Shown piece by piece: positions 26,044 to 44,900 of a stretch of DNA of 64,000 nt. The position numbers and the translations under genes were made by a program. How positions within the stretch are numbered: the stretch's first letter is position 1; each line of letters opens with the position of its first letter. The notes under the pieces are model-generated. The model saw only the letters and a list, made by a program, of their open reading frames with translations, had not been told where the DNA came from and ran no database searches. Source of the DNA: Candidatus Staskawiczbacteria bacterium (lineage in GTDB: Bacteria > Patescibacteriota > Minisyncoccia > Minisyncoccales > Staskawiczbacteraceae); NCBI GenBank assembly GCA_023245195.1, contig JAHFKU010000001.1:27662-91661 (forward strand). Direction: 5' to 3'.

Positions 26044-26057
26044 AATTTTAACTAAAA

Positions 26058-26091
26058 AACAGCTCTGAGTTTATTAAAGGGCTGTTTTTTT
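26058..26091 (+). terminator. Terminator after the DUF5666-like gene
   Basis: AACAGC-loop-GCTGTTTTTTT. Confidence 0.6.
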
Positions 26092-26149
26092 GTAATACTA
26101 AATTACTAAATTTGTTGATACTATCATTTTTGCAATTGCGTAAATTACT

Positions 26150-26320: not shown

Positions 26321-26325
26321 GTAAA

Positions 26326-26784
26326 TTAGAGTATCGATATTTTTTTGAAATCCTTTTTTATTTTTTTATATTGGGGTATGGTTTTTGCGACTAGATTCCA
26401 AAATGCCGGCGAGTGGTTTAATTGTTCTAGGTGGCACAGTTCGTGGACAATCACGTAATCTGATAAATGTGGAGGAAGCAAAGCAATTTTATAATTAAAA
26501 TTCAAGTTGCCCTTTTTTGAACAACTGCCCCAGCGGGTCTTTTGGTTTTTAATGGTTACGCGATTTACTTTAAATTTGTAAAAGGCATTAAAGTGCGCGA
26601 TTTTATTTTGTGCCGTTGCCAGGGCCTGGTTTTTGTACTGTATAAATTCCAATGAATTGGGTTTTCGCCTTTTTTTGCGACGCTTTTTTTGCCACCGTGC
26701 TTTGCGCCGAATCAATCTTAAGCTTTTGATGGAAAATCCATTTTTATAGTTAGTTTTTTTAAATACGAAAAACATATGAATCAA
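26326..26784 (-). CDS. YgjP-like (DUF45 / WLM-type) metal-dependent hydrolase
   Basis: RWGSCS...HELCHLEQLNHSPAFW zinc-binding motif of the DUF45/SprT-like M48 superfamily; highly basic N-terminus. Confidence 0.7.
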   Translation of the reverse strand: MIHMFFVFKKTNYKNGFSIKSLRLIRRKARWQKKRRKKRRKPNSLEFIQYKNQALATAQNKIAHFNAFYKFKVNRVTIKNQKTRWGSCSKKGNLNFNYKIALLPPHLSDYVIVHELCHLEQLNHSPAFWNLVAKTIPQYKKIKKDFKKISIL

Positions 26785-26830
26785 TTATACAGCAAGTTGG
26801 TTGTGCCTGGTATACAGATGGAGCCTTTTT

Positions 26831-27007
26831 GCTCTGAATCACGAAACTCCCGTTTTAAAAGTTACTTTTCGGGTCTTTTCTCCAAATCTGGGCTGGAAAT
26901 TCGCAAGAATTTCCAGGCGGAGCCTTTGGCTAAGCCTGAAAATTCTATCAAATTTCCAACCGCCAGATTTGGAGAAAATCCCGCGAAAGAGTTTCGTAAT
27001 TCAGAGC
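26831..27007. mobile_element. MITE-A copy (~177 bp)
   Basis: TIRs GCTCTGAATCACGAAACTC / GAGTTTCGTAATTCAGAGC; central GGCGGAGCCTTTGGCTAAGCC palindrome. Confidence 0.7.
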
Positions 27008-27092
27008 TTTTTGGGAGATTCTGAAATTTACGGTATAATGCGTATAGTTTCTCTTCACAGAAAATTAATAAACTTGAAGGCAAAATCCCTCT

Positions 27093-28391
27093 ATGATGCC
27101 ACTTAGTCAAAAATTTGAAAATGCAGCCAGGTGGTTTTTTGCTGTTGTCCAAAATAAAAAATTGATGGCTTTGGTCTTAGCGGGATTTCTGATTTCCGGC
27201 GGTATTGGGGCATACGTTGCCAAAGATTATATTGCGGGAGTGCTGTCTTCCCAAGAACAATTTTTGGGTGCCATGTTGGGCGCCAAAACTTCAACATCAG
27301 CCGGCGAATTTGATAATAAAAATGCTATCGCTAAAAAACCGGCCAAAGATTGTTTATTTGAAACTTCACAAGCGCCCCAAAAAAGCCCTCTTATTTTAAA
27401 TGAAATCGCCTGGATGGGGAATAAAGAAAGCGCCAATAATGAATGGATAGAACTTAAAAATATTTCTTCAGAACTGATGCATATAGCGGGCTGGAGCTTA
27501 ATAAACCAAAGTGAAAAAATAAAGGCGGTTTTTAAAAGCGATATCGATATTCCAGCCGGTGGCTTTTATATTTTGGAGCGGGGCGGCCTCGATTTTTTAC
27601 CTAACGTAGAAGCGGATGATTTTTTTACCGGGTCTCTTAAAAATAGCGGGGATAGCTTAAGGCTTTTTGACCAGGATTGCAATGTAATTGACCAGGTTCT
27701 TGCCGAAAGCGCCTGGCCGGCGGGAGACAATAAAACCAAAAAAACCATGGAGCGGGATTCTAACACTCTGGCTTGGCACACTTCTGGCATCGTGCAAGGA
27801 ACGCCAAGAAAAGAAAATACCCCTTTGTTAAAAGTGGTTATGAGCCCGCCCAAAGAAGCGGCCAGCCAACCCCAGATTACATTAACGCCACCGCCAACCC
27901 CAACTGTAGATTCTTTTCAAAAATTAACACAACCGCCGGTATCACAAGCCAATAATCACTTATTAATTAGTGAAATTATGGCCGGAAGCGAGACTAGCAG
28001 CACCGATGCATTTATAGAATTTTATAATCCGACATCTGGCGCTATTGATCTTACCGGCTGGACTATTAAGAAAAAAACTTCAACCGGAAGCGAATCTTCG
28101 CTGATTGTTCCTTCGCGCCTTAAGGGAAAGTTGGTTTTACCGGGAACTTATTTTTTGGCCGTAAATGAAAAAGGCCAGATAGGCGTGGCATTAGCCGATG
28201 TCATGTGGCCGGCTTCTTATCTATTGGCGCGCGCTAAAAATTCTGTTGTGATATATGATAGCTTTGGCAAAAAAGTTGAGGAAGTTGGCTGGGAAACCAT
28301 TCCCAAAGGACAAAGCTATGAACGTAATTCCTGGTTTGATAGCGCCTTTCATGTGCAAGTAAATCCTAATCCTAATAGTAAAACCCCATAA
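27093..28391 (+). CDS. Membrane-anchored protein with two lamin-tail domains
   Basis: ILNEIAWMGN...NEWIELKN and LISEIMAG...EFYNPT lamin-tail-domain signatures; PT-rich linker. Confidence 0.65.
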   Translation: MMPLSQKFENAARWFFAVVQNKKLMALVLAGFLISGGIGAYVAKDYIAGVLSSQEQFLGAMLGAKTSTSAGEFDNKNAIAKKPAKDCLFETSQAPQKSPLILNEIAWMGNKESANNEWIELKNISSELMHIAGWSLINQSEKIKAVFKSDIDIPAGGFYILERGGLDFLPNVEADDFFTGSLKNSGDSLRLFDQDCNVIDQVLAESAWPAGDNKTKKTMERDSNTLAWHTSGIVQGTPRKENTPLLKVVMSPPKEAASQPQITLTPPPTPTVDSFQKLTQPPVSQANNHLLISEIMAGSETSSTDAFIEFYNPTSGAIDLTGWTIKKKTSTGSESSLIVPSRLKGKLVLPGTYFLAVNEKGQIGVALADVMWPASYLLARAKNSVVIYDSFGKKVEEVGWETIPKGQSYERNSWFDSAFHVQVNPNPNSKTP

Positions 28392-28396
28392 ATATC

Positions 28397-29026
28397 ATGG
28401 ATAACAAGAAAATTGCAAAACATATTTTTTTTGGCCTCTTGATTATTATCGGTTGGATGGTAATGTATGGAGTATATTACCAGGCTCATAAAGGGGAAAT
28501 TGCGCAAAAAGCCAAATTAGCAGGATTGATGCAAGAGAGCCAGGTTTTGCCTGAAATTCAAAGACCCGTTAAATTTTCTGATTGCCAGATTCGGGGCGCC
28601 CTGCCAGACCCAGAATGCACTCCCGGAGATATCTTTAATAGTATTCCCTTAGAAACCATCTGCACTCATGGCTATACTAAAACGGTCAGAAATGTTTCCT
28701 TGGCCACCAAAAAGAAGGTGTATGCTATGTATGGCATCGCTTATCCGCCGAGCCGCGGGTCTTACGAAATGGACCACTTAATTCCATTGGCGCTGGGAGG
28801 AAATAATAACATTGCTAATTTATTTCCGGAAGCGGCCCAGCCAAAGCCCGGATTTAAAGAAAAAGATGTGGTTGAAATGTATTTATACCAAGAAGTGTGT
28901 GCCGGCCATATTAATCTTGGGTATGCGCAGGCAACCATAGCAAAAGACTGGCTGGCTGTTTATACCACGCTTGACCAAGCAACCATAACTGCGATAAAAA
29001 ATAAATATAAAAGTTGGGCAAATTAA
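28397..29026 (+). CDS. Membrane-anchored HNH-like nuclease
   Basis: N-terminal TM; YEMDHLIPLALGGNN...NLFP HNH His-Me-finger-like motif. Confidence 0.45.
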   Translation: MDNKKIAKHIFFGLLIIIGWMVMYGVYYQAHKGEIAQKAKLAGLMQESQVLPEIQRPVKFSDCQIRGALPDPECTPGDIFNSIPLETICTHGYTKTVRNVSLATKKKVYAMYGIAYPPSRGSYEMDHLIPLALGGNNNIANLFPEAAQPKPGFKEKDVVEMYLYQEVCAGHINLGYAQATIAKDWLAVYTTLDQATITAIKNKYKSWAN

Positions 29027-29044
29027 ATTTTTAAGAAAAAAACT

Positions 29045-29494
29045 ATGGAAAATAAAAAAATATATTTGGTGGTGATTATTGTCATTATGGCCGTGGCGCT
29101 TTTGGGGGCTGTTTTTGTGCTGGTAAAAAATAAAAAAGCATTTACTCCGGTTTCTGTTGTTGAAGATACAGCTGATATCCAGGTTTTCAGTCCCAAAGAA
29201 AACGAGGCAATTTCTTCACCTCTTGATATTACGGGAGTCGTGCGCGGAAACGGCTGGGCGGGCTTTGAGGGCCAAGTGGGAACCGTTCATGTGTTGGATA
29301 ATAATGGCAAAGAATTAGCAGCCACCTTTTTGCCGGCCACCAGCGAATGGACAAAATTACCCGTTAATTTTAGGGCTCGCGTAGAATTTACGGCCGTTGC
29401 CGGCACGCCCGGGTTTTTAGTGTTTAAAAATGAGAATCCTAGCGGCGATCCCAAGAAAGAGAAAACCTTTGTCGTAGCGATCAAATTCAAATAA
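29045..29494 (+). CDS. Secreted Ig-like (Gmad2/GerM-like) domain protein
   Basis: Signal anchor plus beta-rich ~110-aa domain; weak family assignment. Confidence 0.35.
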   Translation: MENKKIYLVVIIVIMAVALLGAVFVLVKNKKAFTPVSVVEDTADIQVFSPKENEAISSPLDITGVVRGNGWAGFEGQVGTVHVLDNNGKELAATFLPATSEWTKLPVNFRARVEFTAVAGTPGFLVFKNENPSGDPKKEKTFVVAIKFK

Positions 29495-29518: not shown

Positions 29519-29604
29519 GGCTACGAAATACGAATGTCATACGAATATACGAATGCAAACGCTGTTGTTAATTCGTATATTCGTAACTATTCGTATTTCG
29601 TAGC
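29519..29604. repeat. Family-5 TACGAAT/ATTCGTA palindrome upstream of tgt
   Basis: GGCTACGAAATACGAATGTCATACGAATATACGAAT...ATTCGTATATTCGTAACTATTCGTATTTCGTAGC. Confidence 0.55.
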
Positions 29605-31527: not shown

Positions 31528-32253
31528 GTGATTCCAAATTCATTTATTCCATTCAAGATGCTAGATACTAAATTCCAGATTCTAGTCAACATGGTAACCT
31601 TGGACGACGTTAAAAATAATCCCCAGATATTAGAATTTATCAACCAAACCGAAGAGGCTATGGAAGCTTTGTCTTATACTAATCACGGGCTTCGCCATTC
31701 CAATATTGTAGCACAAAGGGCTATGGAAATTGCCAAGAATATCGGATTAAATAATCGGGAAGCGGAATTGGCGGCCATGGCCGGATTTTGCCACGATATG
31801 GGCAACTTTTTAACCCGCACCTTTCATCACTTTTTTGGCGCCCAGCTTTTTGGCCAAGTGTTTATGGGAAAGTTTGACCCTAAGGAACTGGCTATGATTA
31901 TGCAGGCTATTTCAAACCATGATAAAGATGAAATGAATTTTGTGCATGCGGTATCAGCAGTGTTAGTGTTGGCGGATAAATCTGATGTTGATCGATCTCG
32001 CGTGGCCAAACAAAGCCTAGAAGAAACCAAAGCCGATATTCATGATCGGGTAAATTATGCTACCACTGAAAGTGATATAAAAGTAGAAAAAGGGAAAAAA
32101 CGAATTACCCTGAAGTTAAAAATCGATACCAAATTTTGCCCGGTTATGGAATACTTTGAAATTTTTACCGAAAGAATGGTCTTTTGCCGAAAGGCGGCGC
32201 AGTTTTTGGGATATGATTTTGGGTTGGTTATTAATGATTTTGAATTACTTTAG
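31528..32253 (+). CDS. HD-domain phosphohydrolase
   Basis: H...HD metal-binding motif (HGLRHS...CHDMGN). Confidence 0.7.
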   Translation: MIPNSFIPFKMLDTKFQILVNMVTLDDVKNNPQILEFINQTEEAMEALSYTNHGLRHSNIVAQRAMEIAKNIGLNNREAELAAMAGFCHDMGNFLTRTFHHFFGAQLFGQVFMGKFDPKELAMIMQAISNHDKDEMNFVHAVSAVLVLADKSDVDRSRVAKQSLEETKADIHDRVNYATTESDIKVEKGKKRITLKLKIDTKFCPVMEYFEIFTERMVFCRKAAQFLGYDFGLVINDFELL

Positions 32254-32310
32254 GAGTAATCACGAATATACAAATTTCCACAAATATACGAATTTTACAA
32301 ATATACAAAT
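32252..32310. repeat. Family-5 half-element (left arm only) starting at the stop codon of the HD-domain gene
   Basis: AGGAGTAATCACGAATATACAAATTTCCACAAATATACGAATTTTACAAATATACAAAT, same arm as at 57376. Confidence 0.5.
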
Positions 32311-32367
32311 ATGTCTACTCTCATTACAAAGAGAGCGCAGTAATCTATTGAGCTAATTTTAAAATTT

Positions 32368-33150
32368 ATGGCAGAAAATTTACCATCACAAGAACAACCA
32401 GAAGAAATTTCACTGGAGGAAGATGAGAAAAGAAGACTTGAACAAGAATGGCTTAATTTTTCAGAAGCTAATAAAATGTTGCGGTTTTTGGAAAATCAAG
32501 AAATCGTTGTAAGTGATCGCCAAGCTCGCCTTCTTGCCATAAGTTGTTGTAACCGTCTTAATGATTTGCTGGATGATCGTAGCAAGAAAGCCTTGGAGGT
32601 TGCAGAACTTTATGCAGATGGTAATGCAAATATTGAAGATTTAAATGAAGCGCGCAGGATTGCTAGAGAGGTCTTATCCAATCTCCCTTTTGACGAAAAT
32701 GGTAGTATTGATTTGGGGTCAATCGAGTTAACAGCAACCCAACAAGCCTTGGAAGCTATCAATTGTAGTTTAGACGCCTCAGCACGTCTTTTTTTAGGAT
32801 CGGCTATAATTAGATCTAATACAGCTTTTGCTTATGCTTACGATAAAAATCAATCTAAGGATAAAGCAAATTCATATTCTGTAAATTTATTGCGCGACAT
32901 TGTAGGCAACCCCTTTGCCAAAGAACCAATCGTATTTGATGAAAATTGGCGTACGTCAGATGTTCTTGCAATCGCCAAAGGCATTTATGAAGAAAAAGCT
33001 TTTGAGCGAATGCCCATTTTAGCTGATGCTCTCCAAGATGCTGGATGTGATAACGAGGAAATTCTCAATCATTGTCGTAAAGATTTAAATACTTCAGAAT
33101 GTTCGCATGTCAGAGGTTGCTGGGTTATAGACCTAATACTTGGTAAATAA
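32368..33150 (+). CDS. Hypothetical protein; last 7 codons and stop lie inside the left arm of a MITE-B copy
   Basis: 260 aa with no confident family. The C-terminal ...LADALQDAGCDNEEIL...HVRGCWVIDLILGK resembles repeat-companion cores but is unassigned. The TAA stop at 33148-33150 is inside the MITE-B left TIR. Confidence 0.4.
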   Translation: MAENLPSQEQPEEISLEEDEKRRLEQEWLNFSEANKMLRFLENQEIVVSDRQARLLAISCCNRLNDLLDDRSKKALEVAELYADGNANIEDLNEARRIAREVLSNLPFDENGSIDLGSIELTATQQALEAINCSLDASARLFLGSAIIRSNTAFAYAYDKNQSKDKANSYSVNLLRDIVGNPFAKEPIVFDENWRTSDVLAIAKGIYEEKAFERMPILADALQDAGCDNEEILNHCRKDLNTSECSHVRGCWVIDLILGK

Positions 33151-33293
33151 TTTACTGCAAATTAAATCTTTTGGCTATAAATTTCCAAAAGCTCCGCGGC
33201 TTATCGACCTTGCTGATAAGCCTTGTCGCTTTTTGAAATTTCTATCTCAAGATCTTTAATTTTCGTAACAATTATTTACCAATTATTAGGTCT
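33129..33293. mobile_element. MITE-B copy (~165 bp)
   Basis: TIRs AGACCTAATACTTGGTAAATAAT / ATTATTTACCAATTATTAGGTCT; core ...AAATCTTTTGG..AAATTTCCAAAAGCTC.GCGGCTTATCGA...TGATAAGCC... shared with the 40434 copy. Confidence 0.65.
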
Positions 33294-33353
33294 TAGATCT
33301 AATTCTAGGAAAAAACTAATTCCAGCTCCAGAATACAAGATACAGAATACATT

Positions 33354-33821
33354 ATGGAAAAGAAAAAGTTATTTTATATAATCGTTGATAATATAAGAAG
33401 CTTGGAAAATATCGGATCAATTTTTAGGACAGCAGATGCCTTGGGAGTTGCGAAAATATTTTTATGCGGGATTTCGGGCGTGCCACCAAACCATAAAATT
33501 GCCAAAACTGCGCTTGGCGCCGAAACAACGATTCCTTTTGAATATCACAAGCAAACATGGCGGTTGATAGAAAAATTACAGGCTCAAGGAATACAGATTG
33601 TTGCTTTAGAACAAGACAAAAAAGCCGTTTTATATACAAAATTCAAGCCTAAATTTCCCTTGGCGTTAATTGTTGGCAACGAAGTAAAGGGAATTTCTAA
33701 AAAAACGTTATCTCTCGCAGATAGGATTATTTATTTGCCAATGAAGGGCAAAAAAGAGTCGTTGAATGTATCGGTGGCGTTTGGGGTAGCGGGATACCAG
33801 ATAAGAAAATTTGAAATTTGA
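33354..33821 (+). CDS. SpoU/TrmH-family RNA 2'-O-methyltransferase (TrmL-like)
   Basis: 155-aa SPOUT fold (LENIGSIFRTADALG, ALIVGNE..G). The 3' end, including the stop, overlaps a family-3 palindromic repeat. Confidence 0.75.
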   Translation: MEKKKLFYIIVDNIRSLENIGSIFRTADALGVAKIFLCGISGVPPNHKIAKTALGAETTIPFEYHKQTWRLIEKLQAQGIQIVALEQDKKAVLYTKFKPKFPLALIVGNEVKGISKKTLSLADRIIYLPMKGKKESLNVSVAFGVAGYQIRKFEI

Positions 33822-33970
33822 AATTTACAATTTGAAATCAAGCCGCGCACCACGGTGCGCGGCCGAATGTTAAAATGTGTAAATTTTAAAACCCGACGTC
33901 GTGTTTCAATCATTTCAAATTAAATCATTTCAAATTGATTTCAAATTTCAAATTGTAAATTTCAAATTAA
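33807..33970. repeat. Family-3 palindromic element (TTTGAAATTTACAATTTGAAAT termini with an internal GC-rich hairpin)
   Basis: Termini AAATTTGAAATTTACAATTTGAAATC / ATTTCAAATTGTAAATTTCAAATT; inner hairpin GCCGCGCACCACGGTGCGCGGC (33842-33863); GACGTCGTGTTT box. Confidence 0.6.
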
Positions 33971-33974
33971 AACT

Positions 33975-34226
33975 ATGCTTGATCCACAAACCATAAAATT
34001 TATAGAACTGCTATCTAATCCCTCATACGCTTTATTATTTTTGGCGTTGGCGGTTTGGGGACTGGCTTGGAAGGGAATTGCGCTATGGCGAGCTTCGCGT
34101 AACAACCAAAGAAATTGGTTTATTGTAATGTTGATTTGCAACACGTTTGGCATTTTAGAAATTATCTATATTTTTTACTTTTCTCATCCAAAACAAGCAA
34201 AAAAGGAACAAAACATTGACACATGA
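33975..34226 (+). CDS. Small two-TM membrane protein
   Basis: 83 aa with two hydrophobic helices; the start codon immediately follows a family-3 repeat. Confidence 0.4.
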   Translation: MLDPQTIKFIELLSNPSYALLFLALAVWGLAWKGIALWRASRNNQRNWFIVMLICNTFGILEIIYIFYFSHPKQAKKEQNIDT

Positions 34227-34274
34227 TTGACCTCGAGACTATTATAAGCTAAAATGAGCTTAAAGTTATTGTAA

Positions 34275-34447
34275 CCTTGAATCACGAAATGCCCTTTGGA
34301 AAGCAAGTTTCGGGTCTTTTCTCCAAATCTGGGCTGGAAATTCGCTATAATTTCTATGCGTAGCCTTTGGCTACGCCTATAAATTCTATCACATTTCCAT
34401 CTTCCAGATTTGGGGAAAATCCCGCGAAAGCATTTCGTGATTCAAGG
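34275..34447. mobile_element. MITE-A copy (~173 bp) with perfect 18-bp TIRs
   Basis: CCTTGAATCACGAAATGC ... GCATTTCGTGATTCAAGG; the whole element is a long imperfect palindrome. Confidence 0.8.
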
Positions 34448-34575
34448 TGGTAATTAAATAACAAGGTCGATTTTTTAAAGTTATAAACGTTATAGACGTT
34501 ATATCACTTCGCTCGTTTTAAACGATTAAAACGAAATTGCAAAGTAATTGATATGACGATTAGAACAACTAAACT

Positions 34576-34833
34576 ATGCCAGGAAAATCAAATTCGGCTT
34601 TCATGAAGCCAATGAAACTTACTGCTGAATTAGAAGCAGTGGTTGGAAAGGGGCCTATGCCAAGAAGCCAAGTGGTAAAAAAATTGTGGGAATACATCAA
34701 GAAAAATAATTTGCAAGATGCTACCAATAAAAGAAATATTAATGCCGACGCAGCATTAAAAGCGGTCTTTGGCGGAAAGGGAATGGTAAATATGTTTGAG
34801 ATGACAAAATTAGTTTCAAAGCATCTCTCGTAA
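34576..34833 (+). CDS. SWIB/MDM2-domain protein
   Basis: TAELEAVVGKGPMPRSQVVKKLWEYIKKNNLQD...NADAALKAVFG is the SWIB domain signature. Confidence 0.7.
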   Translation: MPGKSNSAFMKPMKLTAELEAVVGKGPMPRSQVVKKLWEYIKKNNLQDATNKRNINADAALKAVFGGKGMVNMFEMTKLVSKHLS

Positions 34834-34835
34834 AT

Positions 34836-34940
34836 AATACGAATTCACACGAATTGCAAGGCGAATGAACACGAATCACAAATTCGTGCTTTCGTGAAAA
34901 TTCGTGGCGCAACAGCGCCTGATTCGTGTTTATTCGTCAC
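34836..34940. repeat. Family-5-like ACGAAT/ATTCGT-rich palindromic region upstream of the small zinc-ribbon gene
   Basis: AATACGAATTCACACGAATTGCAAGGCGAATGAACACGAATCACAAATTCGTGCTTTCGTGAAAATTCGTGGCGC..GATTCGTGTTTATTCGTCAC. Confidence 0.45.
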
Positions 34941-34944
34941 AAAT

Positions 34945-35109
34945 ATGACAACAGCTTATTGCGTAAAATGCAAAGAAAAGGATGTAGAAATGAAAGATGC
35001 CAAAGAAGTCCCATTTAAAAGAAAAGGTGGAAAGATGGGCAAGGCCATGACCGGCATCCATGAAAAATGCGGAACCAAGATGTTTAGGATTATGGGAGCA
35101 GCGAAATAG
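34945..35109 (+). CDS. Small zinc-ribbon protein (CxxC...C), hypothetical
   Basis: The track ORF starts at 34894, but its first 17 codons translate a TACGAAT-family repeat; the ATG at 34945 gives a 54-aa CVKC...EKCG protein. Confidence 0.35.
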   Translation: MTTAYCVKCKEKDVEMKDAKEVPFKRKGGKMGKAMTGIHEKCGTKMFRIMGAAK

Positions 35110-35118
35110 TCCATTTTC

Positions 35119-35150
35119 AAAACGCCGAGCCTGTAAGGGCTCGGCGTTTT
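35119..35150 (+). terminator. Rho-independent terminator after the small zinc-ribbon gene
   Basis: AAAACGCCGAGCC-TGTAAGG-GCTCGGCGTTTT, a perfect 13-bp stem. Confidence 0.75.
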
Positions 35151-35173
35151 GCAAAACTAATAACTAAAAATAT

Positions 35174-35343
35174 AATTTGAAATTTACAATTTGAAATTTG
35201 AAATCAATTTGAAAAAAACGTGAATTTGAAATAATTAAAACATGACGTCGTGTTTTCAAATTTAAACATTGAAACATTCGGCCACGCGCCCCGCGGGGCG
35301 CGTGGCTTAATTTCAAATTGTAAATTTCAAATTTCAAATTCAA
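35174..35343. repeat. Family-3 palindromic element, inverted relative to the 33807 copy
   Basis: The same termini, the GACGTCGTGTTTT box and the GC hairpin GGCCACGCGCCCCGCGGGGCGCGTGGC (35280-35306); ends 3 nt before the ndk ATG. Confidence 0.6.
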
Positions 35344-35346
35344 AAT

Positions 35347-35856
35347 ATGTCAGATAAATTACAGCGAACTTTAGTGCTTTTAAAGCCCGATGCCCTGCAT
35401 CGGGGGATTGTGGGCGAAGTCATGCACCGATTTGAAAGGGTGGGAGCTAAAATGGCGGGTCTTAAAATGCTGGTTTCCGATAAAGACGCGGCTGGCAGGC
35501 ACTACACCGACGATCTTGCCAAAAGGAGGGGGGAAAAAGTAAGAAATATGATGATACAAATGATAACTTCGGGGCCCATTATTGCTATTGTCTATGAAGG
35601 GGTTGAGATTGTTGAAATTGTTAGAAAACTGGTTGGCGCTACCGAACCAAAGGCTTCAGCTCCGGGAACGATCCGCGGAGATTTTTCCCATGTTTCTTTT
35701 GGGTATGCCGATGCCAAAGAAATGCCGATTATGAATTTAATTCACGCTTCCGCTTCGCCAGAAGAAGCCCAATCGGAAATAGCGGTTTGGTTCAAGCCTG
35801 AAGAATTGGTAAGCCATAAGCCAAGTTATACTAAATACACGCTTGGCGAAGAATAG
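35347..35856 (+). CDS. ndk: Nucleoside diphosphate kinase (long variant with insertion)
   Basis: TLVLLKPDA, NxxHASAS and the active-site His region (NLIHAS); good terminator downstream. Confidence 0.85.
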   Translation: MSDKLQRTLVLLKPDALHRGIVGEVMHRFERVGAKMAGLKMLVSDKDAAGRHYTDDLAKRRGEKVRNMMIQMITSGPIIAIVYEGVEIVEIVRKLVGATEPKASAPGTIRGDFSHVSFGYADAKEMPIMNLIHASASPEEAQSEIAVWFKPEELVSHKPSYTKYTLGEE

Positions 35857-35871
35857 AAAGAAAATATTACA

Positions 35872-35897
35872 AAAACGTACCTCGTACCGTTTTTTGT
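35872..35897 (+). terminator. Terminator after ndk
   Basis: AAAACG.TAC-CTC-GTACCGTTTTTT. Confidence 0.6.
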
Positions 35898-35952
35898 GTT
35901 AATTTATTCACAACTTCTTGTTTTTTAGCAATTAAAAATATGCTAAAATAAA

Positions 35953-35984
35953 GAAATGCCGTGAAAGCATTTCGTGATTCAAAG
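35953..35984. repeat. MITE-A solo-end remnant immediately upstream of giant gene 1
   Basis: GAAATGCC joined directly to GCGAAAGCATTTCGTGATTCAAAG (the right-end sequence). Confidence 0.55.
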
Positions 35985-36008
35985 AGTGTATCATTTTTAA
36001 TTTACCAC

Positions 36009-39000
36009 ATGGCTTTTAAAAAAATTTCAACGTCAGTTATTTTTGCCGGAATATTTACTTGCACGGTGGTGTTTTTTTATTTGCCCGCAACGCCATTAAA
36101 AATCCAAGAAGCCAGAGCTTATGCCTGCTATGACGATGGAACCAATGACAGTAATTTTAACTGGACCGACACCAGTATTTGGGCTGGCTGCAATGGCAGT
36201 TATCCCGGCTCTCCCGCAAATGGAAATAGCGATACGGTAACTATTGGTAATACTAATCAAAGTGGTAACACATTTACGCTTAATACGAGTTCCATTACCA
36301 TAGCTAGTTTAATTATAGGTCCTATCAGCCACGGCGGTACACTAAAATTAAACGGAAATACACTTAATGTAAACGGTGCTGTAACCATAAAAACTGCTGC
36401 CAACTGCAGCTTCGCAAGTGATTTGCAGGTTGGAACAGGAACTTTAAATGCGACAGGTCTTATTACCATCGAAAATACTGCTGCCGATTCTAGTAATTGC
36501 GATGCAGATCTTGACGCAAGTACCGGAACCATTACCGCCAGCGGTGGCATTACCTTTTTATTTACCGCCGGAGCCAGTGCAGACTTAAGGCTCACCACCA
36601 CCGGAGCCACTACGATTAACCTTACCGGAGCTGTAACGGGCGCAGGGGATTTGTCTATTAATTCTGCGACCACGTTAGTTTCAACCGGTACCAGTAGTCT
36701 TGGACAAACTGCAACTTGGGGTAAATTATCTATCCCGAGTGGAACACTTACGATGGGGGCATTTGCTATATCGTTTGCTGGCACTACCAGTCTTACCGGC
36801 GGCACGCTCGCTGTCTCCAGCGCCACTGGAACCAAAACCTTCACCGGCGCCGTCACCTGCACCACCGGTAGTTTTGATTTGTCAGGGTTTGCTACCGTCA
36901 CCAGCTTTGCTGCCGGTATCACCGCCAACTGTACTACGTTTAATACGGGTACGGGCACTGCTGCTTTTTCAGCCGACCAATCTCTTGCTGGTTCGACCAA
37001 TATCACTTTCGGTGGTACTGTCACCCCCGCTTCAACTAAAACGATTACTAACAATAACACTGGAACGGTCACCGTTTCAGGAGCATTGACTCTGACGGGA
37101 AACTGGACGCAGGGCGCCAACTCAACCTTGAGCCTGGGCGCAACTCCGACGGGATCAGGCACTTTTGATACGAGTACGAATACGCCAAACACGGTAAAAT
37201 ATACCGCCACATCAACGCTGAAAGCTCCCAGTAGTTCTTACTACAATTTAACGATTACGGGAGGAACGGTAACAACGATAGCGGTAACGGTAACCAATAA
37301 TCTCGTAGTGAGCGGAGGCACTCTTTCTGGCACTTCTAATATTACCGTCAATGGCGGGGGAGTCACCGGTGATGGCACGATCACCATGAGCGCCCCCAGT
37401 GTCTTTTTAGTAGACGGCACTGGTAACTTCGGTGGTGCTACCGGCTGGACATTTTATGATTTAACCTTTGGAGATGGCAGTGGAGCTACGACAACCACGG
37501 CTACCGGAGCAGGAAGTATTACCGTCACCAACACTCAAACGGTTGCCGCTAATCAAACATTAAATGCTGGAAGTAAAACGTGGAATTTAACCGGTGTAGC
37601 AGTGAGCACTTCTTCTACCTATGTTCAAGGATGCGTCAATACTAATGCTAGTAATTCAGTCACTTGTACGATGAGTTCAAATATAACTGCGGGAAATTTA
37701 TTGGTGGTAAGCGGTTCAACTGCCGCAAATTTAACGGCTACTTTTTCCAGTTCTTCTGGAGTCAGTTGCACCTGGAATACGATTACCAGTGGCATAGCTA
37801 ATAGCGGTGTTCCTTTCAACTACGCTTTGGCTTATTGTCTTGTTCCTTCAACCGGAGCCGAAACAATCCAAATAAGTTGGAGCGGTAGCAGTTCTTTTAG
37901 CGATATTACGATTGCTGAATATAGTAATACGAGCGGCGGGTTTGCTCCCGGATTTGATAAATCGAGCAATGCGGTTGTTACGGGAGACTCCACTACCTGC
38001 AGTACCGGAACGACAGCTACGTTATCGCAGGCCAATGAATTGGTTATTGCCCTTTGCCATGGCTGGAACGGTAATGCTACCATTGGGACCGTATCGGGAT
38101 ATACCAAAAGAACCACTTCTGAAAGATCTAGTAACAATAATGGCTGGTATGACAAAGATGTAACCAGTACGACTGGTGTTTCGTGGTCCGCAACGATTGG
38201 GAGCGATAAAAGCATCGGCTTGATAGCTACGTTTATGAAATCCGGAATTACTGGAAGCCAATCATTAACCGTTAACGGCACTTTCACGGCCAGTACCTCA
38301 ACGTTCGCTTTTCAAAATGATATGGCTTTAACCATTCCCGCATTAACGTATTATAATTTAACCCTCTCTCCCACCATCACCGCCGCCCGCACCTACACCT
38401 TCGCCGGAGTCACCACCGTCAGCAACAACTTTGATATCAACCCCACTGCTTCTTCTGCCTTGGCTCTTACTACTAACCTTGGCGGAACGCTCACCGTCAC
38501 CGGTTCCACCACCATTGAGCGTACCACCTCTGCCACTTCCACCCTCGACACCCTTTCAGCTAGTAACTACGCTCTTTCATCAGGCTCTATTACGATTTCC
38601 ACCGGAGGAACCTTCACTTCCAATAATTCCGTTATCACCCTCACCGGCACCTCCGGCACGTTGTTTACCAAAACCGGAACTCTCACCGCCGTTGGCACCA
38701 CTTCTGAATGGGATGTCACTTCTGCAAGCGGAAGCCCCACCTTATTATCCGCCTCTACAACCCTCCACATCCTCAAGATCAACGCCGCCGCCACCGTCAT
38801 TAACCTCGGAGCGGCTTTCACCACCGACAATAATTCAGGCAACAAACTCTATGTAGCTTCCGGCGTCTTAAACCAGGAAAACCGCACCATCACCGCCGGA
38901 ACCAGCGGCACCTTGCAACTTGATTCCGGAGGCACCCTCTGCTTAGGGGGAACCACTTCTGCCACCACCGCCACCTGTGACTCGGGAGCCACCCAAACCA

Positions 39001-40364
39001 CTTCCTACACCCTTCCTTCATTTACCACTAACACGATTAATGCCTCTTCTACCGTTATCTATCTCTCAAATGCGACTACGACCGTAACCTCGTTAACCTA
39101 CGGCAACCTCAGCCTGATGCCAAAGATGACCACCGGAGTCGGAAGTCTTACTTACACCATGCCATCGAGCACCGTCAGCATCACCGGCAACTTTAACATC
39201 AAACCCACCGCTTCCAACGCGAGTCTGGCTCTCACCGTCAACTTGGCCACTTCCTCAAACACCGTCACCGGCACCACCACCATCCAACCCGATTCCACCA
39301 ATAGTCCCACGGCCAAGTTAGCTTCCACCTCTTCCAACTACAACCTAACCACCGGCAAGGTAGACATCGAATCCAACGGAACCTTGGATATTAATAATTC
39401 CACCCTCACCATTACCGGAACCTCGGGAACGTTATTCACGAGAGTGGGAACCTTCACCATCGGAGGTACCAGTACCACCACCTTTTCGGGCAATGGAGAC
39501 GCCACCTTAAATTCCGGATCGATAACATTCGATGCCATGACTAATTCTGGAACCGGAACCAAAACCCTCGGAGCCGCCATCACCACCGGGGGAGCGTTGA
39601 CGATTAGCGCGGGGACAATCGATGTTTCAGCCAGCGGCTGCTCTTCCGCTTCTTGTGCTGTTAATGTTGCGGGAAATTTTGCAAATTCCGGAACTTTTAC
39701 TGCCCGCACCGGTACAGTCACTTTTAATGGAACTAGTCAGACGATTTTTGGATCTACTTCTTTTTATAATTTTACCAAATCCGTCAGTTCTGCCGACACC
39801 TTAACTTTTACGGCCTCGTCTACCCAGACTATTGCCGGAACTCTTACGCTCCAGGGCGCTTCCGGTCAGCTGCTTTCATTGGTTTCAAGTTCGAGCCCGA
39901 CCCAATGGAATATTGATCCCCAAGGAACTCGGACCATCGGTTATCTAGATGTTAAAGATTCCAACAACACCAATGCTACGGCAATTACGACATCGGGGTT
40001 TACTATTACTGATTCCGGCCACAATACTAATTGGACATTTAGCACCTCGGGAACGACTCAACAATATGCCGGCGGACGAGTAATATATCTGCCAAAATCT
40101 GAAAAACCAAAAAATCCTATTTTGGTAAATCCTCAATATTTCTTCATTCGTTATTTGGGGCCCGGCGATAGGGGAGAGGATGTACTAATGCTTCAAACAT
40201 TACTTTTGCAACAAGGATTTTTTCCCGCCACTGTAATTATGAATGGTTATTTCGGATCGATAACCAAATTGTCAGTTAAAAAATTTCAGGCCAAATATGG
40301 TATTCGCCAAACGGGAAATGTCGGACCGCTCACCAAAAATGTTTTGAATACTTTAGAAAAATAG
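36009..40364 (+). CDS. Giant S/T/G-rich beta-helix surface protein 1 (~1450 aa) with C-terminal peptidoglycan-binding domain
   Basis: Signal anchor; N-terminal C..DDGTNDSNFNWTD..W..CNGSYPG..NGNSDTVTI module; T/S/G-rich beta-solenoid repeats; C-terminal PG_binding_1 (LMLQTLLLQQG...GYFGSITKLSVKKFQ). The track GTG at 35961 would translate a MITE remnant, so the ATG at 36009 is preferred. Confidence 0.7.
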   Translation: MAFKKISTSVIFAGIFTCTVVFFYLPATPLKIQEARAYACYDDGTNDSNFNWTDTSIWAGCNGSYPGSPANGNSDTVTIGNTNQSGNTFTLNTSSITIASLIIGPISHGGTLKLNGNTLNVNGAVTIKTAANCSFASDLQVGTGTLNATGLITIENTAADSSNCDADLDASTGTITASGGITFLFTAGASADLRLTTTGATTINLTGAVTGAGDLSINSATTLVSTGTSSLGQTATWGKLSIPSGTLTMGAFAISFAGTTSLTGGTLAVSSATGTKTFTGAVTCTTGSFDLSGFATVTSFAAGITANCTTFNTGTGTAAFSADQSLAGSTNITFGGTVTPASTKTITNNNTGTVTVSGALTLTGNWTQGANSTLSLGATPTGSGTFDTSTNTPNTVKYTATSTLKAPSSSYYNLTITGGTVTTIAVTVTNNLVVSGGTLSGTSNITVNGGGVTGDGTITMSAPSVFLVDGTGNFGGATGWTFYDLTFGDGSGATTTTATGAGSITVTNTQTVAANQTLNAGSKTWNLTGVAVSTSSTYVQGCVNTNASNSVTCTMSSNITAGNLLVVSGSTAANLTATFSSSSGVSCTWNTITSGIANSGVPFNYALAYCLVPSTGAETIQISWSGSSSFSDITIAEYSNTSGGFAPGFDKSSNAVVTGDSTTCSTGTTATLSQANELVIALCHGWNGNATIGTVSGYTKRTTSERSSNNNGWYDKDVTSTTGVSWSATIGSDKSIGLIATFMKSGITGSQSLTVNGTFTASTSTFAFQNDMALTIPALTYYNLTLSPTITAARTYTFAGVTTVSNNFDINPTASSALALTTNLGGTLTVTGSTTIERTTSATSTLDTLSASNYALSSGSITISTGGTFTSNNSVITLTGTSGTLFTKTGTLTAVGTTSEWDVTSASGSPTLLSASTTLHILKINAAATVINLGAAFTTDNNSGNKLYVASGVLNQENRTITAGTSGTLQLDSGGTLCLGGTTSATTATCDSGATQTTSYTLPSFTTNTINASSTVIYLSNATTTVTSLTYGNLSLMPKMTTGVGSLTYTMPSSTVSITGNFNIKPTASNASLALTVNLATSSNTVTGTTTIQPDSTNSPTAKLASTSSNYNLTTGKVDIESNGTLDINNSTLTITGTSGTLFTRVGTFTIGGTSTTTFSGNGDATLNSGSITFDAMTNSGTGTKTLGAAITTGGALTISAGTIDVSASGCSSASCAVNVAGNFANSGTFTARTGTVTFNGTSQTIFGSTSFYNFTKSVSSADTLTFTASSTQTIAGTLTLQGASGQLLSLVSSSSPTQWNIDPQGTRTIGYLDVKDSNNTNATAITTSGFTITDSGHNTNWTFSTSGTTQQYAGGRVIYLPKSEKPKNPILVNPQYFFIRYLGPGDRGEDVLMLQTLLLQQGFFPATVIMNGYFGSITKLSVKKFQAKYGIRQTGNVGPLTKNVLNTLEK

Positions 40365-40433
40365 TTTTCCACAATTTTCATCTTGACTCGTTTTTTTGAA
40401 AAGTTATAATGAAAGTAGCTCTGAAGTTCCGAA

Positions 40434-40600
40434 AGGCTCACCAATTAAGTATTGTTCTACTGCACATTAAATCTTTTGGTTAAAAATTTCCAAAAGCTCG
40501 GCGGCTTATCGATTCTCACTGATAAGCTTTCTCGCTTTTGATAATTTTCAACTTCAAAACTTTTAATTTTCGTCACGAAAAATACTTAATTGGTGAGCCT
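40434..40600. mobile_element. MITE-B copy (~167 bp) between giant gene 1 and the RAYT
   Basis: Perfect 20-bp TIRs AGGCTCACCAATTAAGTATT / AATACTTAATTGGTGAGCCT; core ~85% identical to the 33129 copy. Confidence 0.65.
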
Positions 40601-40705: not shown

Positions 40706-40768
40706 CATCAGAGCAACAAAAAGGTCGCATCCGTGCGATTTTTTTGTTGCTCTGATGCGATGTTTAAT
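40706..40768. repeat. Large perfect hairpin (17-bp stem) upstream of the RAYT; candidate IS left-end structure
   Basis: CATCAGAGCAACAAAAA-GGTCGCATCCGTGCGATT-TTTTTGTTGCTCTGATG. Confidence 0.5.
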
Positions 40769-40789
40769 GATAAAATACCTATATAATAT

Positions 40790-40812
40790 CTTGCGAGGTC
40801 ATACCTCGCAAG
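40790..40812. repeat. REP hairpin copy 1 (CTTGCGAGGTCATACCTCGCAAG), 14 bp upstream of the RAYT ATG
   Basis: Perfect 10-bp stem with ATG/CAT in the loop, which is shared by copies 2 and 3. Confidence 0.7.
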
Positions 40813-40825
40813 ATTTATAAAATTT

Positions 40826-41578
40826 ATGTCTTCAAAAAGACCACAATTAGTTAACGATGAATTTTATCATGTTGTCCTAAGAACTGTGGGTGATAGCGTT
40901 GTTTTCGAAAAAGAAGATGATTTTTATCGTGGCATTTTTTCTATTTATGAATTTAATAATGTCAACCCTGTAAATATATGGTTGAGAAGACAGCAACGTA
41001 AAAAGGAAAAGGCAATGGAAGATCTTGTAAAATCAGATTCTGTAAATTTGCGAGGTATGACCTCGCAATACTCTGAACAACTAGACAGAAGAGATAAGAT
41101 GGTGGAGATTTTATGTTTTTCTTTTATGCCGAATCACTTGCATCTTTTACTGCGCCAATTAAAAGATGATGGAATTACTCATTTTATGCAAAAAGTTGGT
41201 ACTGGCTATGCAAGATATTTTAATCAAAAATACAATCGCAAGGGGCATCTTTTCAGCCGTTTTCGAGCAGTTCATATTAAAACTGATGAACAGTTGAAAA
41301 ATACATTTACCTATATCCACACTAATTTAATCGCTTTAATCGAGCCAGGGTTTAAGGAAAAAGGATTAAAAAATCCCAAGAAGGTAATAGAATTTTTAGA
41401 AAATAGTAAACGCCACAGTTATCTTGATTATCTTAATAAAAAGAATTTTCCTTCGGTCACAGAAAGAGAATTTCTTCTAAACATATTAGGAGGTCCGGAT
41501 GGTTGCCGGGAAGAAGTAAATAATTGGGTAAATCATAAAAAAGAGTTGAAAGATTTTAGTAATGTTTTTTTAGAATAA
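40826..41578 (+). CDS. IS200/IS605-family HUH tyrosine transposase, REP-associated (RAYT-like)
   Basis: N-terminal YHVVLRT, HUH motif NHLHLLL, and catalytic-Tyr region TYIHTNLIALIEPG. Identical REP hairpins lie upstream, inside and downstream. Confidence 0.8.
   Translation: MSSKRPQLVNDEFYHVVLRTVGDSVVFEKEDDFYRGIFSIYEFNNVNPVNIWLRRQQRKKEKAMEDLVKSDSVNLRGMTSQYSEQLDRRDKMVEILCFSFMPNHLHLLLRQLKDDGITHFMQKVGTGYARYFNQKYNRKGHLFSRFRAVHIKTDEQLKNTFTYIHTNLIALIEPGFKEKGLKNPKKVIEFLENSKRHSYLDYLNKKNFPSVTEREFLLNILGGPDGCREEVNNWVNHKKELKDFSNVFLE
41048..41068. repeat. REP hairpin copy 2, inside the RAYT coding sequence
   Basis: TTGCGAGGTATGACCTCGCAA, translated in frame as NLRGMTSQY. Confidence 0.7.
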
Positions 41579-41592
41579 CTATTCTAAATTGC

Positions 41593-41635
41593 AAACAAAA
41601 ACTTTGCGAGGTATGACCTCGCAAAGTTTTTGTTT
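41593..41635. repeat. REP hairpin copy 3 with extended 20-bp stem, downstream of the RAYT
   Basis: AAACAAAAACTTTGCGAGGTATGACCTCGCAAAGTTTTTGTTT. Confidence 0.7.
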
Positions 41636-41886
41636 CTTCTGGGAAGTTATCCACAGTTTTACGGTGGTTTTTAGTATATTTCACATCATTAAAATATGGT
41701 AAAATGAACGAATAATTTTATATTTTTTCCAGCTTTTTTAAATGCCTCCCAAAAAACGCAAGCATAATATTATAACCATAAAAATAAAAGATAAAAATAC
41801 GGTTGCAAAAGCTCCGGCAAGTCTTTATGTGCGCATTGTTTCTCCTGCGCCGGCGCATAAATTATGGTTGCTTAATCTTTTTAGTT

Positions 41887-41957
41887 CTCAATTGCAAAAC
41901 TTCCGTTTTAAAAGTTACTTTTTTGGTCTTTTTCCCACAAAAGATTTTCGTGATTCA
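41887..41957. repeat. Internally deleted MITE-A remnant in the 5' leader of giant gene 2
   Basis: Matches the left 45 bp (…CCGTTTTAAAAGTTACTTTT…GGTCTTTTTC) and right end (AAAGATTTTCGTGATTCAG) of the 26831 copy. Confidence 0.6.
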
Positions 41958-41975
41958 GTGTTTTTTAAAGTTTTT

Positions 41976-44900
41976 GTGGCGGAATTTTGGCATCTTAAAA
42001 ATACCGCCCGCACCAATATTAAATCTATTGCCCTGGTTTCTTCCCTTTTTATTTTTTCTTTAACACTAACAACCGGCAATTCATTTATTTCAACCTACCA
42101 AATACATCAGCGGGATTACCGCACCATTAAAGATGTTGTCATCAAACAACTGTCGCCGGCGGTTATAAATCAGCCTACCCAATACACCGTTTTAGTCAAG
42201 CAAAGTTTAATTACCAAAGGCAAGAAGGGACAGTATTTGGTAAAGCTTCCAAAAGGCGCCACTAATATCAGTGTTAAAACCATCTTAGCCGATCAAGCCA
42301 AACAAATTCTTTCAAAAGAAACTCCAAAAATCACCAGCCTCTTTTCTAATCTTAAAAATCCTTTATCTTTTACAAAACCTTCCCATTCGGTTTCTGTCAA
42401 ACCCAAAAACGGCCAATTTCTTTTAGCTTCACTTGATGAGTCGGGCTTGCCAGAAACTCCACCAGCGCTAGAACCCGTAGCAGTTGAGTCTCTGCCAGTT
42501 GAACTTCCACCGGCCGCAGAACACGCAGCTGATCCCGTAAAAACCCAAGAAGAATCCGCCGTTTCTGAATCTGCGCCAATTCAGGAAGAGCCCGTAACTT
42601 CCGATGTTCGCGTTATTAAAACTAAGGATGCTACCTTTGTAGATGTTTCTTCTCAAGCGCCGCCAGCGCCAGAATCTGTTACAGAAAATAATAGTGAAGC
42701 TTCTGATGCGCCTGTTGTTCCCGATGCGCCCGCTGCAAATGATGCTAACCAAGATTCTACAAATCAAGATATTGCTGATTCTCCTGAAATTGTTTCCGGA
42801 GAAGTTCCCGCCTCCGATAAATCTTCGGCAGACAAGCCAGCAGACAAAGAAAATAAGGAAAATTCTGGCCAGAATAATCCTGACAACAAACTCAAAAAAG
42901 AAGAGTATATTAAAATTGATTATCAAATCCAGGCAGCCGTAATTACCGAACAAAAAACTAACCATGGGAAAAATGTTACCGTTTCCGCTCCCAATGAAGA
43001 TCCAGAACATCCTCTTACCAACGTGTTGGCTTTTACTGCGATTCCCGAAATTTTTAATATTGGCCAGGAAGATAACATTCAAATTAAGTGGACCAACAAT
43101 CAAGATCAGCCAATGCCCTTTACGGCCCACGATACTAATGGCAATGGAAAGCTTGATTACCTAGAATGGGTAGTTCCGCATTTATCCGAACAAGAATTTA
43201 ACATTATTTATATTTCTAAAGCTTTTTTGCTTGACCAGGATAAAAATGTTCTTGAAGATATTTATCCTATTGTTAAAGAACAGGATGGCACTTTTCAGGC
43301 TGTTACCCAAGGCCAGTATGTCCGTGTGACGTTCATAAAAAATCTTACCCAAAATAACGATATTACGTTGTATGCCCGGCCCACTGACCCAAACCAGCCA
43401 GTTACCATAAAAGTTTACTCTGCTTTGACTGATCAACTTATTACTACCTTTGATGTAATTGATCACGAAGATACCTATCGGGTTTTACTGACAAACTTAG
43501 AACAAGACACCGACGTCTTTGACCTAAAAATCACCAACGCTAACGCTGACATTGATTTTATTGTAGATCCGGGTAACGCTTGTGCAACTAATACTACTGG
43601 CACAGTCAATTGGAGTGCCGCGGGAACTTGGACAAGCTGTGGCGGTGGCTATCCTGGCCAAAGTGGAAACAGCGATACGGTCACTATAGCTAATGCAGCG
43701 GTTGCAGTAACCGGCGATGTTACGGTTACCGTCGATACGATTACGTTTACGGGTGGTAATGCATCCGCATCTATTAATATTAGCAACGGTATAACTATTA
43801 CAGCAACGGGTGCTGCTACGATCAATGCCCCGACCTCGGCTTCTATAACGAAAGAAATTGCAGTAGGTGGTGGTGCTTTGAGTGTTGGTGGACTCTTTAC
43901 CCTGGCTTCTGGTAGCTCTTCTACTAGAATTTCTAAACTTTCAGTTGGTACAGGAACTGCTACTCTTTCTGCGGGTTTGACCTGCACCGGATCAGCAGAA
44001 ACTTTTACCGTTGCCAGTGGCGGAACTTTTAATTTCACTGGTACCATGAGTGCTGGTTGTCTAACCGTTACTATAAATTCTGGATCCACTACTAATTTTA
44101 GTGGTACCGTTCAGCTTGATGGGGCTTATACTTTTGGAATTGTAACCGTTAATAGCGGAACAACAACTATGGGAGCTGTTGCTATTACGTTTGCCGGTAC
44201 CACTACTCTGGGTGGCGGCACCCTGGCGGTTTCCAGTGCCACGGGAACTAAAACATTCACCGGTGCCGTCACTTGCACCACCGGCAGTTTTGATTTATCT
44301 GCTGCCGCTGCCGTCACCAGCTTTGCCGCCGGTATCACCGCCAACTGTACTACGTTTAACACCGGATCAGGTACTGCAACGCTAAGTGCAACTCAATCCC
44401 TGGCTGGTTCTACTAATATTACTTTTGGTGGAGCTTTAACGGTTTCTGCGGGAACTACCACCAATAACAATAGTGGAACCGTTTTATCTACGGGAGTTTT
44501 AACTCTTACTGGTAACTGGGCTCAGGGAGCAAATTCCACTTTGTCTATGAATAGTACTAATAGTGGTTCGGGGACCCTAGATGCTTCTACTAACACTCCA
44601 AACACCGTAAAATATAATGCCACCGCTACCTTAAAAGCCCCAACAAGTTCTTATCATAATCTTACTATCACAGCCGGTACCGTTACTTCTGTGGCAGTTA
44701 CGATTAGCAACGACTTAGTTGTTAGCGGGGGCACGTTTTCTGGTACCGCTAGCATTACGGTAAATGGAGGAGATGTTACTGGTGATGGAACTATTACCAT
44801 GACCGGAGGAACGTTTTTACTAGACGGCACCGGAAATTTCGGAGGCGCTACTGCTTGGACATTTAATAATTTAACCTTTGGGGATGGTAGTGGAACTACG

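Follow-up and report, generated by a model that had tools for sequence, protein, structure and literature searches.

The locus at 34275-34447 raises the question of what kind of element recurs here as a long hairpin, by what means it has spread and why its two arms have stayed complementary. MITE-A, as the element is called here, is an imperfect palindrome of 169-175 bp. A profile built from the four copies apparent in the 64-kb window (the whole stretch of DNA that was analysed, 64,000 nucleotides) was used to seek full copies and returned exactly four full-length matches there, with E values of 1e-51 to 1e-55. The same profile picked out a remnant at 35954-35982 and a weaker match at about 41889-41957, the latter supported by blastn (83-92% identity to the copy at 26832, E ~3e-8). 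The 15-nt core of the terminal inverted repeat (TIR) occurs eight times in the window with at most two mismatches, where 0.14 occurrences are expected by chance. Profile search and blastn therefore agree with the original prediction of four intact and two internally deleted copies in 64 kb. Its coordinates were exact for 34275-34447 on the plus strand, while the ends of the other three copies had to be revised to 26148-26321 (minus), 26832-27006 (plus) and 55887-56058 (minus). The perfect TIRs that it described are found in the copies at 34275 (18/18) and 55887 (19/19); the copy at 26832 has one mismatch and that at 26148 has two.

The 173-bp copy at 34275-34447 (+) has the 18-bp TIR CCTTGAATCACGAAATGC / GCATTTCGTGATTCAAGG, with a DUF5652 gene on one side and a SWIB gene on the other, and is flanked by a decayed repeat, TTGTAA / TGGTAA, in which five of six positions agree. 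The copy at 26832-27006 (175 bp, +) belongs to a TIR subfamily with ACTC/GAGT ends and occupies a divergent spacer, with a YgjP-like gene on the minus strand on one side and an LTD-domain gene on the plus strand on the other; its 7-bp target-site duplication, CTTTTTG, can be read directly at 26825-26831 on the left and 27007-27013 on the right. The same holds for the 174-bp copy at 26148-26321 (-), which lies between convergent genes and is bracketed by TAAATTA at 26141-26147 and 26322-26328. The right-hand TAAATTA contains the TAA stop codon (26326-26328, minus strand) of the YgjP-like ORF at 26326-26784, so that this stop codon was duplicated by the insertion and hence preserved. The fourth full copy, 172 bp at 55887-56058 (-), carries the perfect 19-bp TIR variant CTTTAAATCCCGAAATGCC between the flanks TGTCACA / TGTCATC, which agree at five of seven positions, and matches a copy in a Staskawiczbacteria MAG (L010) with 95% identity over 139 bp. 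The remnant at 35953-35984 (32 bp, +) has the form GAAATGCC-GTGAAA-GCATTTCGTGATTCAAAG, in which the inner left TIR is fused to a complete right TIR; the likely ATG (36009) of a 1467-aa ORF follows 24 nt downstream. The second, an internally deleted element of 74 bp at 41887-41960 (+), joins 50 nt from the left side of an ACTC-subfamily element to a right end. The 5' end of a 4529-aa ORF falls at this remnant or just downstream of it, and the likely start codon of the ORF, GTG 41976, lies about 15 nt downstream.

The orientation of MITE-A is set by a conserved side bulge of 13-17 nt in one arm, and by this measure two window copies point one way and two the other; several internal mismatched blocks are identical in all of them. 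Every window copy is intergenic, with unique flanks and away from assembly joins, and the genes nearby encode DUF5666, YgjP-like, LTD, DUF5652, SWIB, NDK and M50 peptidase proteins. A tRNA scan found none, and hence no tRNA-linked integration. The copies are 74-88% identical among themselves, and the duplications have decayed in two of the four; a divergence of 12-26% combined with two eroded duplications indicates old insertions. Present-day activity of MITE-A in this genome is doubtful; near-identical young copies are hard to assemble in any case, and contig ends account for many of the TIR hits.

Evidence that MITE-A transposes comes from a set of 55 insertions, comprising all full-length copies with flanks, after removal of duplicates, from the window, seven CPR MAGs and groundwater metagenomes. 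An exact 7-bp direct repeat flanks 16 of these insertions, against 0.44 expected from mismatched left and right flanks, and agreement at six or more of the seven positions is seen in 29 of the 55 (53%), compared with 5% in the mismatched-flank controls. Repeats of any other length occur near expectation. The 7-bp targets are almost free of G+C, 78% of them starting with T and 80% ending in A, giving a consensus of roughly T-A-T-W-W-W-A; TAAATTA and CTTTTTG are the two perfect duplications in the window. The filled and the precisely empty state of a site can be compared in one pair: a locus with MITE-A (L011) and a related locus (L072), with flanks 81-90% identical, that lacks both the element and one copy of the duplication, which is itself partly eroded in L011. 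For the window's own copies, empty sites were not recovered in its closest relatives (L141 and L144), where the spacers are unalignable or the DNA is specific to the window.

A metagenome scan with the right TIR yielded at least 120 stretches. Among the matches listed, one (L054) makes up an entire 1022-bp contig with 98x coverage; it runs from CTTTGAATTACGAAATGC to GCATTTCGTAATTCAAAG and encodes a protein of 269 aa. The best of all IS models for this protein is NCBIfam IS982 (NF033520; E 1.1e-37, 129.9 bits, just short of its cut-off of 130 bits), and there is a further match to Pfam DDE_Tnp_1_3 (PF13612; E 2e-30, 106 bits vs a cut-off of 27). At least 11 further loci have the same ends, full or frameshifted and spanning 898-1024 bp, with transposases 50-89% identical to that of L054. 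The loci that combine MITE-A TIRs with an IS982-type ORF in 0.9-1.02 kb are L054, L035, L032, L100, L023, L048, L105/L128, L088 and L147-L150. These partner ISs have one ORF of 266-269 aa, TIRs of 16-18 bp and 7-bp duplications, which are exact in L100 (TTACTTT), L105/L128 (TTTTATA) and L149 (TATATAT); L128 carries the IS and two MITE-A copies on a single contig. By ISfinder figures, members of the IS982 family measure about 1 kb, have one transposase ORF between TIRs of about 18-35 bp and duplicate 3-9 bp of target.

Homologues of the L054 transposase number 1979 at E<=1e-20, mostly on contigs of about 1 kb, which are typical of collapsed repeats. Those with names come from Patescibacteria, Yanofskybacteria and Jorgensenbacteria MAGs, and two of them, 68-73% identical, carry the NCBI annotation 'IS982 family transposase'. 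The Yanofskybacteria-named transposase sits in a 1023-bp IS with ends CCTTGAATTACGAAAC, for which L149 has the TATATAT duplication. Within the 64-kb window itself no IS982-type transposase was found, and a search for a full-length element by way of solitary or widely spaced TIRs found none in the window or in the 19 genome loci described below.

The TIRs of MITE-A are 16-19 bp long and of the form C(T/C)TTGAATTACGAAATGC, and it is only in the terminal 16-21 nt that the element and the sampled ISs have sequence in common. The exception is the ACTC subfamily, which has 24 nt in common with the left end of the IS in L022. As homology between MITE and IS is confined to the termini, an origin by internal deletion from the IS lacks support. 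The MITEs with ACTC/GAGT ends (26832-27006 in the window, L003, L009 3312-3484, L012 5914-6086 and L017) match the left end GAAACTCC of some ISs (L022 11643-12540 and L147-L150 2906-3928), the right end of which is non-complementary. Symmetry between the two ends is therefore greater in these MITEs than in the parent, as though both MITE ends had come from one IS end or been symmetrised later. We also observed that L147 agrees with L148 to the left of the IS at 2906-3928 and with L149 to the right of it, a pattern that points either to chimeric assembly or to recombination across identical copies of the IS; of these three loci, L149 is the only one with a matching 7-bp duplication (TATATAT). 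A 113-bp element at about 9041-9153 of L061 has the same TIRs (CCTTAAATTATGAAATGC ... GCATTTCGTAATTCAAGG) around a different, shorter body, which implies that IS982-type ends serve more than one MITE lineage.

A pattern of 20 specified bases from the body of MITE-A was used to find related loci in genomes, and led to 19 of them in seven CPR MAGs: three of Staskawiczbacteria, three labelled as uncultured Saccharibacteria and one Patescibacteria bin. Between the window and these loci the element alone is common, with 82-95% identity over 124-182 bp, and the flanks are unalignable. By its NDK homologues the window groups with Staskawiczbacteria- and Yanofskybacteria-named proteins at 78-80% identity, and the closest relative (91%) is MAG CAZREI01. 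For the YgjP-like neighbour, a look-up of the exact protein found no entry. Orthologous filled/filled pairs were also sought, and neither L015/L127 nor L136/L061 proved to be orthologous copies: the spacer in L127 is an unrelated one, and L061 carries the different 113-bp element. A scan of viral contigs for phage carriage gave chance 18-mer matches only, with no MITE and no transposase. Several MITE-A copies have themselves received insertions. A second small element of about 70-110 nt, with the motif ..TGCGTCGCT..CTTCGCTATCCTCGG.., is nested in MITE-A at L007 1948-2227, L012 6441-6676 and L019 2081-2320, in each case at a conserved (T/A)ATAAT block near the centre, and the MITE-A copy at L016 6201-6435 contains two other short insertions.

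On this evidence MITE-A is very probably a non-autonomous MITE that has only the 16-18-bp TIRs of an IS982-family IS common in the CPR. The reading of the element as a MITE in the original prediction is thus upheld by the 7-bp duplications, the empty site, the IS982-type partner with matching TIRs and the lack of a conserved frame, and copies are numerous in related CPR genomes and metagenomes. In size, too, at 169-175 bp, the element falls below the limit of about 300-500 bp for MITEs. The remark of the original prediction that no coding capacity is evident also stands, since no single frame is open in more than five of 46 copies and differences in length are not multiples of three.

Whichever strand is folded, the copy at 34275-34447 forms a single long hairpin (-81.4 and -83.1 kcal/mol, z -10.5 and -11.8). 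Covariation was assessed in the 46 copies of standard length, which have pairwise identities of 62-91% (median 75%) and between 0 and 11 broken pairs each out of 59. RNAalifold gives three helices, with compensated double changes at 43 of the 59 pairs. Paired cells make up 95.9% of the total, compared with 85.1% in shuffles, and compensated cells number 278, compared with 66 +/- 6, a value as high being reached in none of 500 shuffles; when partners are slid by 1-3 columns, pairing falls to 30-57%. Helix 1, which is formed by the TIRs, is 96% paired over the 46 copies, and the internal helices show covariation too. The original prediction had noted that TIR variants stay complementary within each copy and had seen in this either selection on structure or intramolecular repair. 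At the level of the family both points find strong support in the covariation, which runs the whole length of the hairpin. In the parent ISs complementarity ends after 16-18 nt, so that recognition of the ends by the transposase cannot explain the longer pairing in MITE-A.

The nature of the constraint can be approached through the pairs that are broken. These comprise 40 G-T, 53-56 A-C and 48-55 other mismatches; G-T is no commoner than A-C, and the broken pairs are thus as expected from unselected single mutations. Of 151 broken cells, 47 are private to one copy, compared with 24 of 277 compensated cells, and in 199 of these 277 the compensated state is common to at least five copies, that is, to subfamilies. 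Among the 55 insertions at all loci, nine lie in divergent spacers and one, 26148-26321, between convergent genes; in tandem contexts MITE-A is sense to its neighbouring genes in 13 cases and antisense in 17, without orientation bias. Since G-T pairs do not exceed A-C and gene orientation shows no bias, the constraint appears to bear on DNA or on mobility rather than on the RNA of one strand. Most likely it sits on the DNA itself, at the copy-making step or in the repair of snap-back duplexes, and probably not on an RNA product. We infer that it is strand-symmetric and acts on those lineages that make new copies, via DNA folding or snap-back repair. To go further and suppose that folded DNA (a snap-back strand or cruciform with its TIRs paired) is the substrate or intermediate of IS982-family mobilisation, or else that snap-back duplexes have a dedicated repair, is a tentative suggestion and, in so specific a form, an unlikely one.

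These observations also weigh on the other ways in which such a family could be explained. Were the copies genes for a structured non-coding RNA, regulatory or catalytic, RNA folding would account for the strong covariation over three helices and for the extreme folding z-scores, and a sigma-70-like site (11/12) at 34216-34245 does lie just upstream of the copy at 34275. Neither strand behaves like a selected RNA, however, given the ratio of G-U to A-C and the balance of orientations noted above; Rfam has no match at gathering thresholds in the window, and a permissive scan of the element gave chance hits only (E=0.4). The 7-bp duplications and the TIRs held in common with a transposase-bearing IS would also be left unexplained, and we consider such RNA genes very unlikely. 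A co-opted role as a portable regulatory module, as a two-way promoter or, on read-through, as an RNase III or terminator hairpin, would be compatible with mobility. The best-conserved internal block, ATTCTATCA (at least 95% of copies), reads TGATAGAAT on the opposite strand, resembling an extended -10 element; its mirror-image site is occupied by GC(T/A)ATAAT, and where the two blocks fail to pair the mismatches are themselves conserved, which suggests a possible two-way promoter. The candidate -10-like boxes, TGATAGAAT in the minus sense and GCTATAAT in the plus sense, read towards and past the apex. In the alignment the two blocks fall at columns ~71-78 and 113-122, corresponding to 34343-34350 and 34381-34391 of the window in the copy at 34275. 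The excess of divergent over convergent spacers, the location of 26832-27006 between divergent genes and the two remnants that precede the likely starts of the giant genes by 15-24 nt would fit such a role. Strings of the -10 type are, however, common in AT-rich DNA, the divergent bias would follow equally from a preference for AT-rich targets together with the greater length of promoter-containing spacers, and the within-copy mismatches resemble neutral decay, which speaks against host-level selection in place. Co-option of this kind accordingly seems to us quite improbable, if less so than an RNA gene.

A different mobile origin is offered by the REPINs, which are long, imperfect hairpins, intergenic and multi-copy, with stem-keeping compensatory changes and a Y1 tyrosine transposase; Bertels and Rainey are said to have described them in 2011 as long hairpins with compensated changes. 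On this view MITE-A would be a REP doublet, and the RAYT-type Y1 tyrosine transposase encoded at 40826-41578 would move it. The window does have a gene for a RAYT-like protein there (NCBIfam REP_Tyr_transpos, E 1.4e-8, short of the cut-off; Pfam Y1_Tnp, E 2.5e-7), with a MITE-A remnant 300 bp away, and REPINs resemble the element in shape. To our knowledge, however, REPINs have neither a target duplication nor DDE-type TIRs, and we know of no target duplication made by Y1 enzymes of the IS200/IS605 type, whereas MITE-A has 7-bp duplications and TIRs of the IS982 type. The RAYT gene has its own, different hairpins (GCGAGGT..ACCTCGC at 40790-40812 and 41603-41627), and no RAYT homologue is found near the element in the 19 genome loci. 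A RAYT/REPIN link was rejected for MITE-A on the strength of the duplications, the separate hairpins and the absence of RAYT genes near copies in those 19 loci, and we hold it to be extremely unlikely. The gene at 40826-41578 (+) encodes a 250-aa RAYT-like Y1 (IS200-like) transposase between REP-like hairpins, CTTGCGAGGT-CATA-CCTCGCAAG and an inverted counterpart, and forms with them a separate REP/RAYT unit that is unrelated to MITE-A. Least credible of all is an assembly artefact, or a duplicated gene of which the copies would be fragments. It is true that these assemblies are broken by identical repeats, with many TIR hits at contig ends, and L147 looks chimeric across an IS, but the window copies are internal to the contig and mutually diverged, with unique flanks; an independent contig of another assembly (L140) repeats 32636-37713 at 99.98% identity, copy included, and any coding signal is absent. 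The copies are thus neither coding fragments nor restricted to assembly joins, the two findings that would have told against a MITE.

For MITE-A as a MITE of the IS982 family, the following course of events may be envisaged. A DDE transposase of about 269 aa would be supplied by a full-length IS of 0.9-1.02 kb elsewhere in the genome or population and would recognise both ends of the element, C(T/C)TTGAATTACGAAA(T/C). Insertion takes place into AT-rich intergenic DNA, with duplication of 7 bp of the target. The 130-bp body of MITE-A, an imperfect palindrome from end to end with a conserved one-sided bulge, derives from none of the sampled ISs. Folding as a single strand or as a cruciform might favour mobilisation, or a snap-back duplex might be repaired. 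The part given here to an IS982-family transposase acting in trans is an inference from sequence, as are the role of the hairpin and any regulatory effect that MITE-A may have.

The closest precedent for MITE-A is the IS982-derived MITE of Cardinium. In the endosymbiont cOegib this element is about 240 bp long, has ISCca4 as its parent and is present in many transposase-less copies, which intact copies of the parent presumably mobilise in trans (PMC9769881). The two elements are alike in being short, non-coding and bounded by IS982-family inverted repeats. Whereas the Cardinium MITE shows traces of its parent IS beyond the repeats, MITE-A retains just the terminal 16-21 nt (24 nt in one subfamily) and, unlike its counterpart, is 169-175 bp long and palindromic end to end with compensated changes. 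MITE-A is also found in several CPR lineages, the Cardinium MITE in one endosymbiont lineage. The Correia elements of Neisseria (CREE/NEMIS) are intergenic and present in many copies of 100-160 bp, with TIRs of about 26 bp and a TA duplication; their transcripts fold into a long hairpin, and promoter elements may be present in them. We know of no cognate transposase for them, and MITE-A differs in its 7-bp duplication and IS982-type partner. Although shaped like REPINs, MITE-A has 7-bp duplications and no RAYT near its copies in the 19 genome loci. RUP of Streptococcus pneumoniae and the IS630-related MITEs are likewise non-autonomous, with the TIRs of a resident IS family around an unrelated or reduced body, but they belong to another IS family and have a TA duplication in place of the 7 bp of MITE-A. 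A search of the literature at hand found no paper linking MITEs with CPR/Patescibacteria; IS982-derived MITEs are already known, and none was found described for the CPR group.

The window copies also lie close to differences in gene order. From the NDK gene to the M50 peptidase gene the window contains two GC-rich blocks, at 35857-40381 and 40723-56210 (GC content 0.47-0.51 against about 0.39), that the close relatives L141, L144 and L145 lack. These blocks contain the two giant ORFs, at 35961-40364 (1467 aa) and 41742-55331 (4529 aa, internally repetitive), which are partly paralogous. Just inside the outer borders of the blocks lie MITE-A remnants or copies, with a full copy near the right border. 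A third block, specific to the window (22278-29184, 6.9 kb) and with two MITE-A copies, takes the place of an L141 spacer (2400-2935) that has one. MITE-A copies thus coincide with breaks in gene order between close relatives; MITEs may promote rearrangements, or they may simply accumulate in variable spacers.

MITE-A does not stand alone, as at least four further palindromic, MITE-like intergenic families of 90-170 bp, with termini unlike those of MITE-A, are present in the window. Family B1 lies at 33129-33293 and 40434-40600, B2 at 33808-33969 and 35173-35340, C at 25150-25279, 56458-56589 and 57932-58051, and D at 57376-57517 with a half copy at 32248-32314; a further MITE-like palindromic repeat lies at 29520-29604. 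B1 is also found in L141 (10561-10727), and L144 and L145 are precisely empty at the site of the copy at 40433-40600. In all, some 15 hairpin repeats occupy the 64 kb, six of MITE-A and about ten of other families.

Genomes of the CPR/Patescibacteria, of about 1 Mb, are usually called streamlined, yet this window is rich in hairpin repeats. MITE-A and its IS982-type partner provide a marker for strain-level variation and account for numerous contig breaks, and for possible chimeras, in metagenome assemblies of the CPR. If the folded-substrate or snap-back repair reading is true, it would represent a mechanistic feature not described for IS982 or for DDE elements of the IS4-IS5 type, and it would also account for the fact that each of several unrelated MITE families here is a long palindrome. 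The strand-symmetric covariation of MITE-A is in itself a clean natural data set on why MITEs are palindromic. Finally, the transposase together with minimal ends is a candidate genetic tool for the CPR, a group with almost no genetics.
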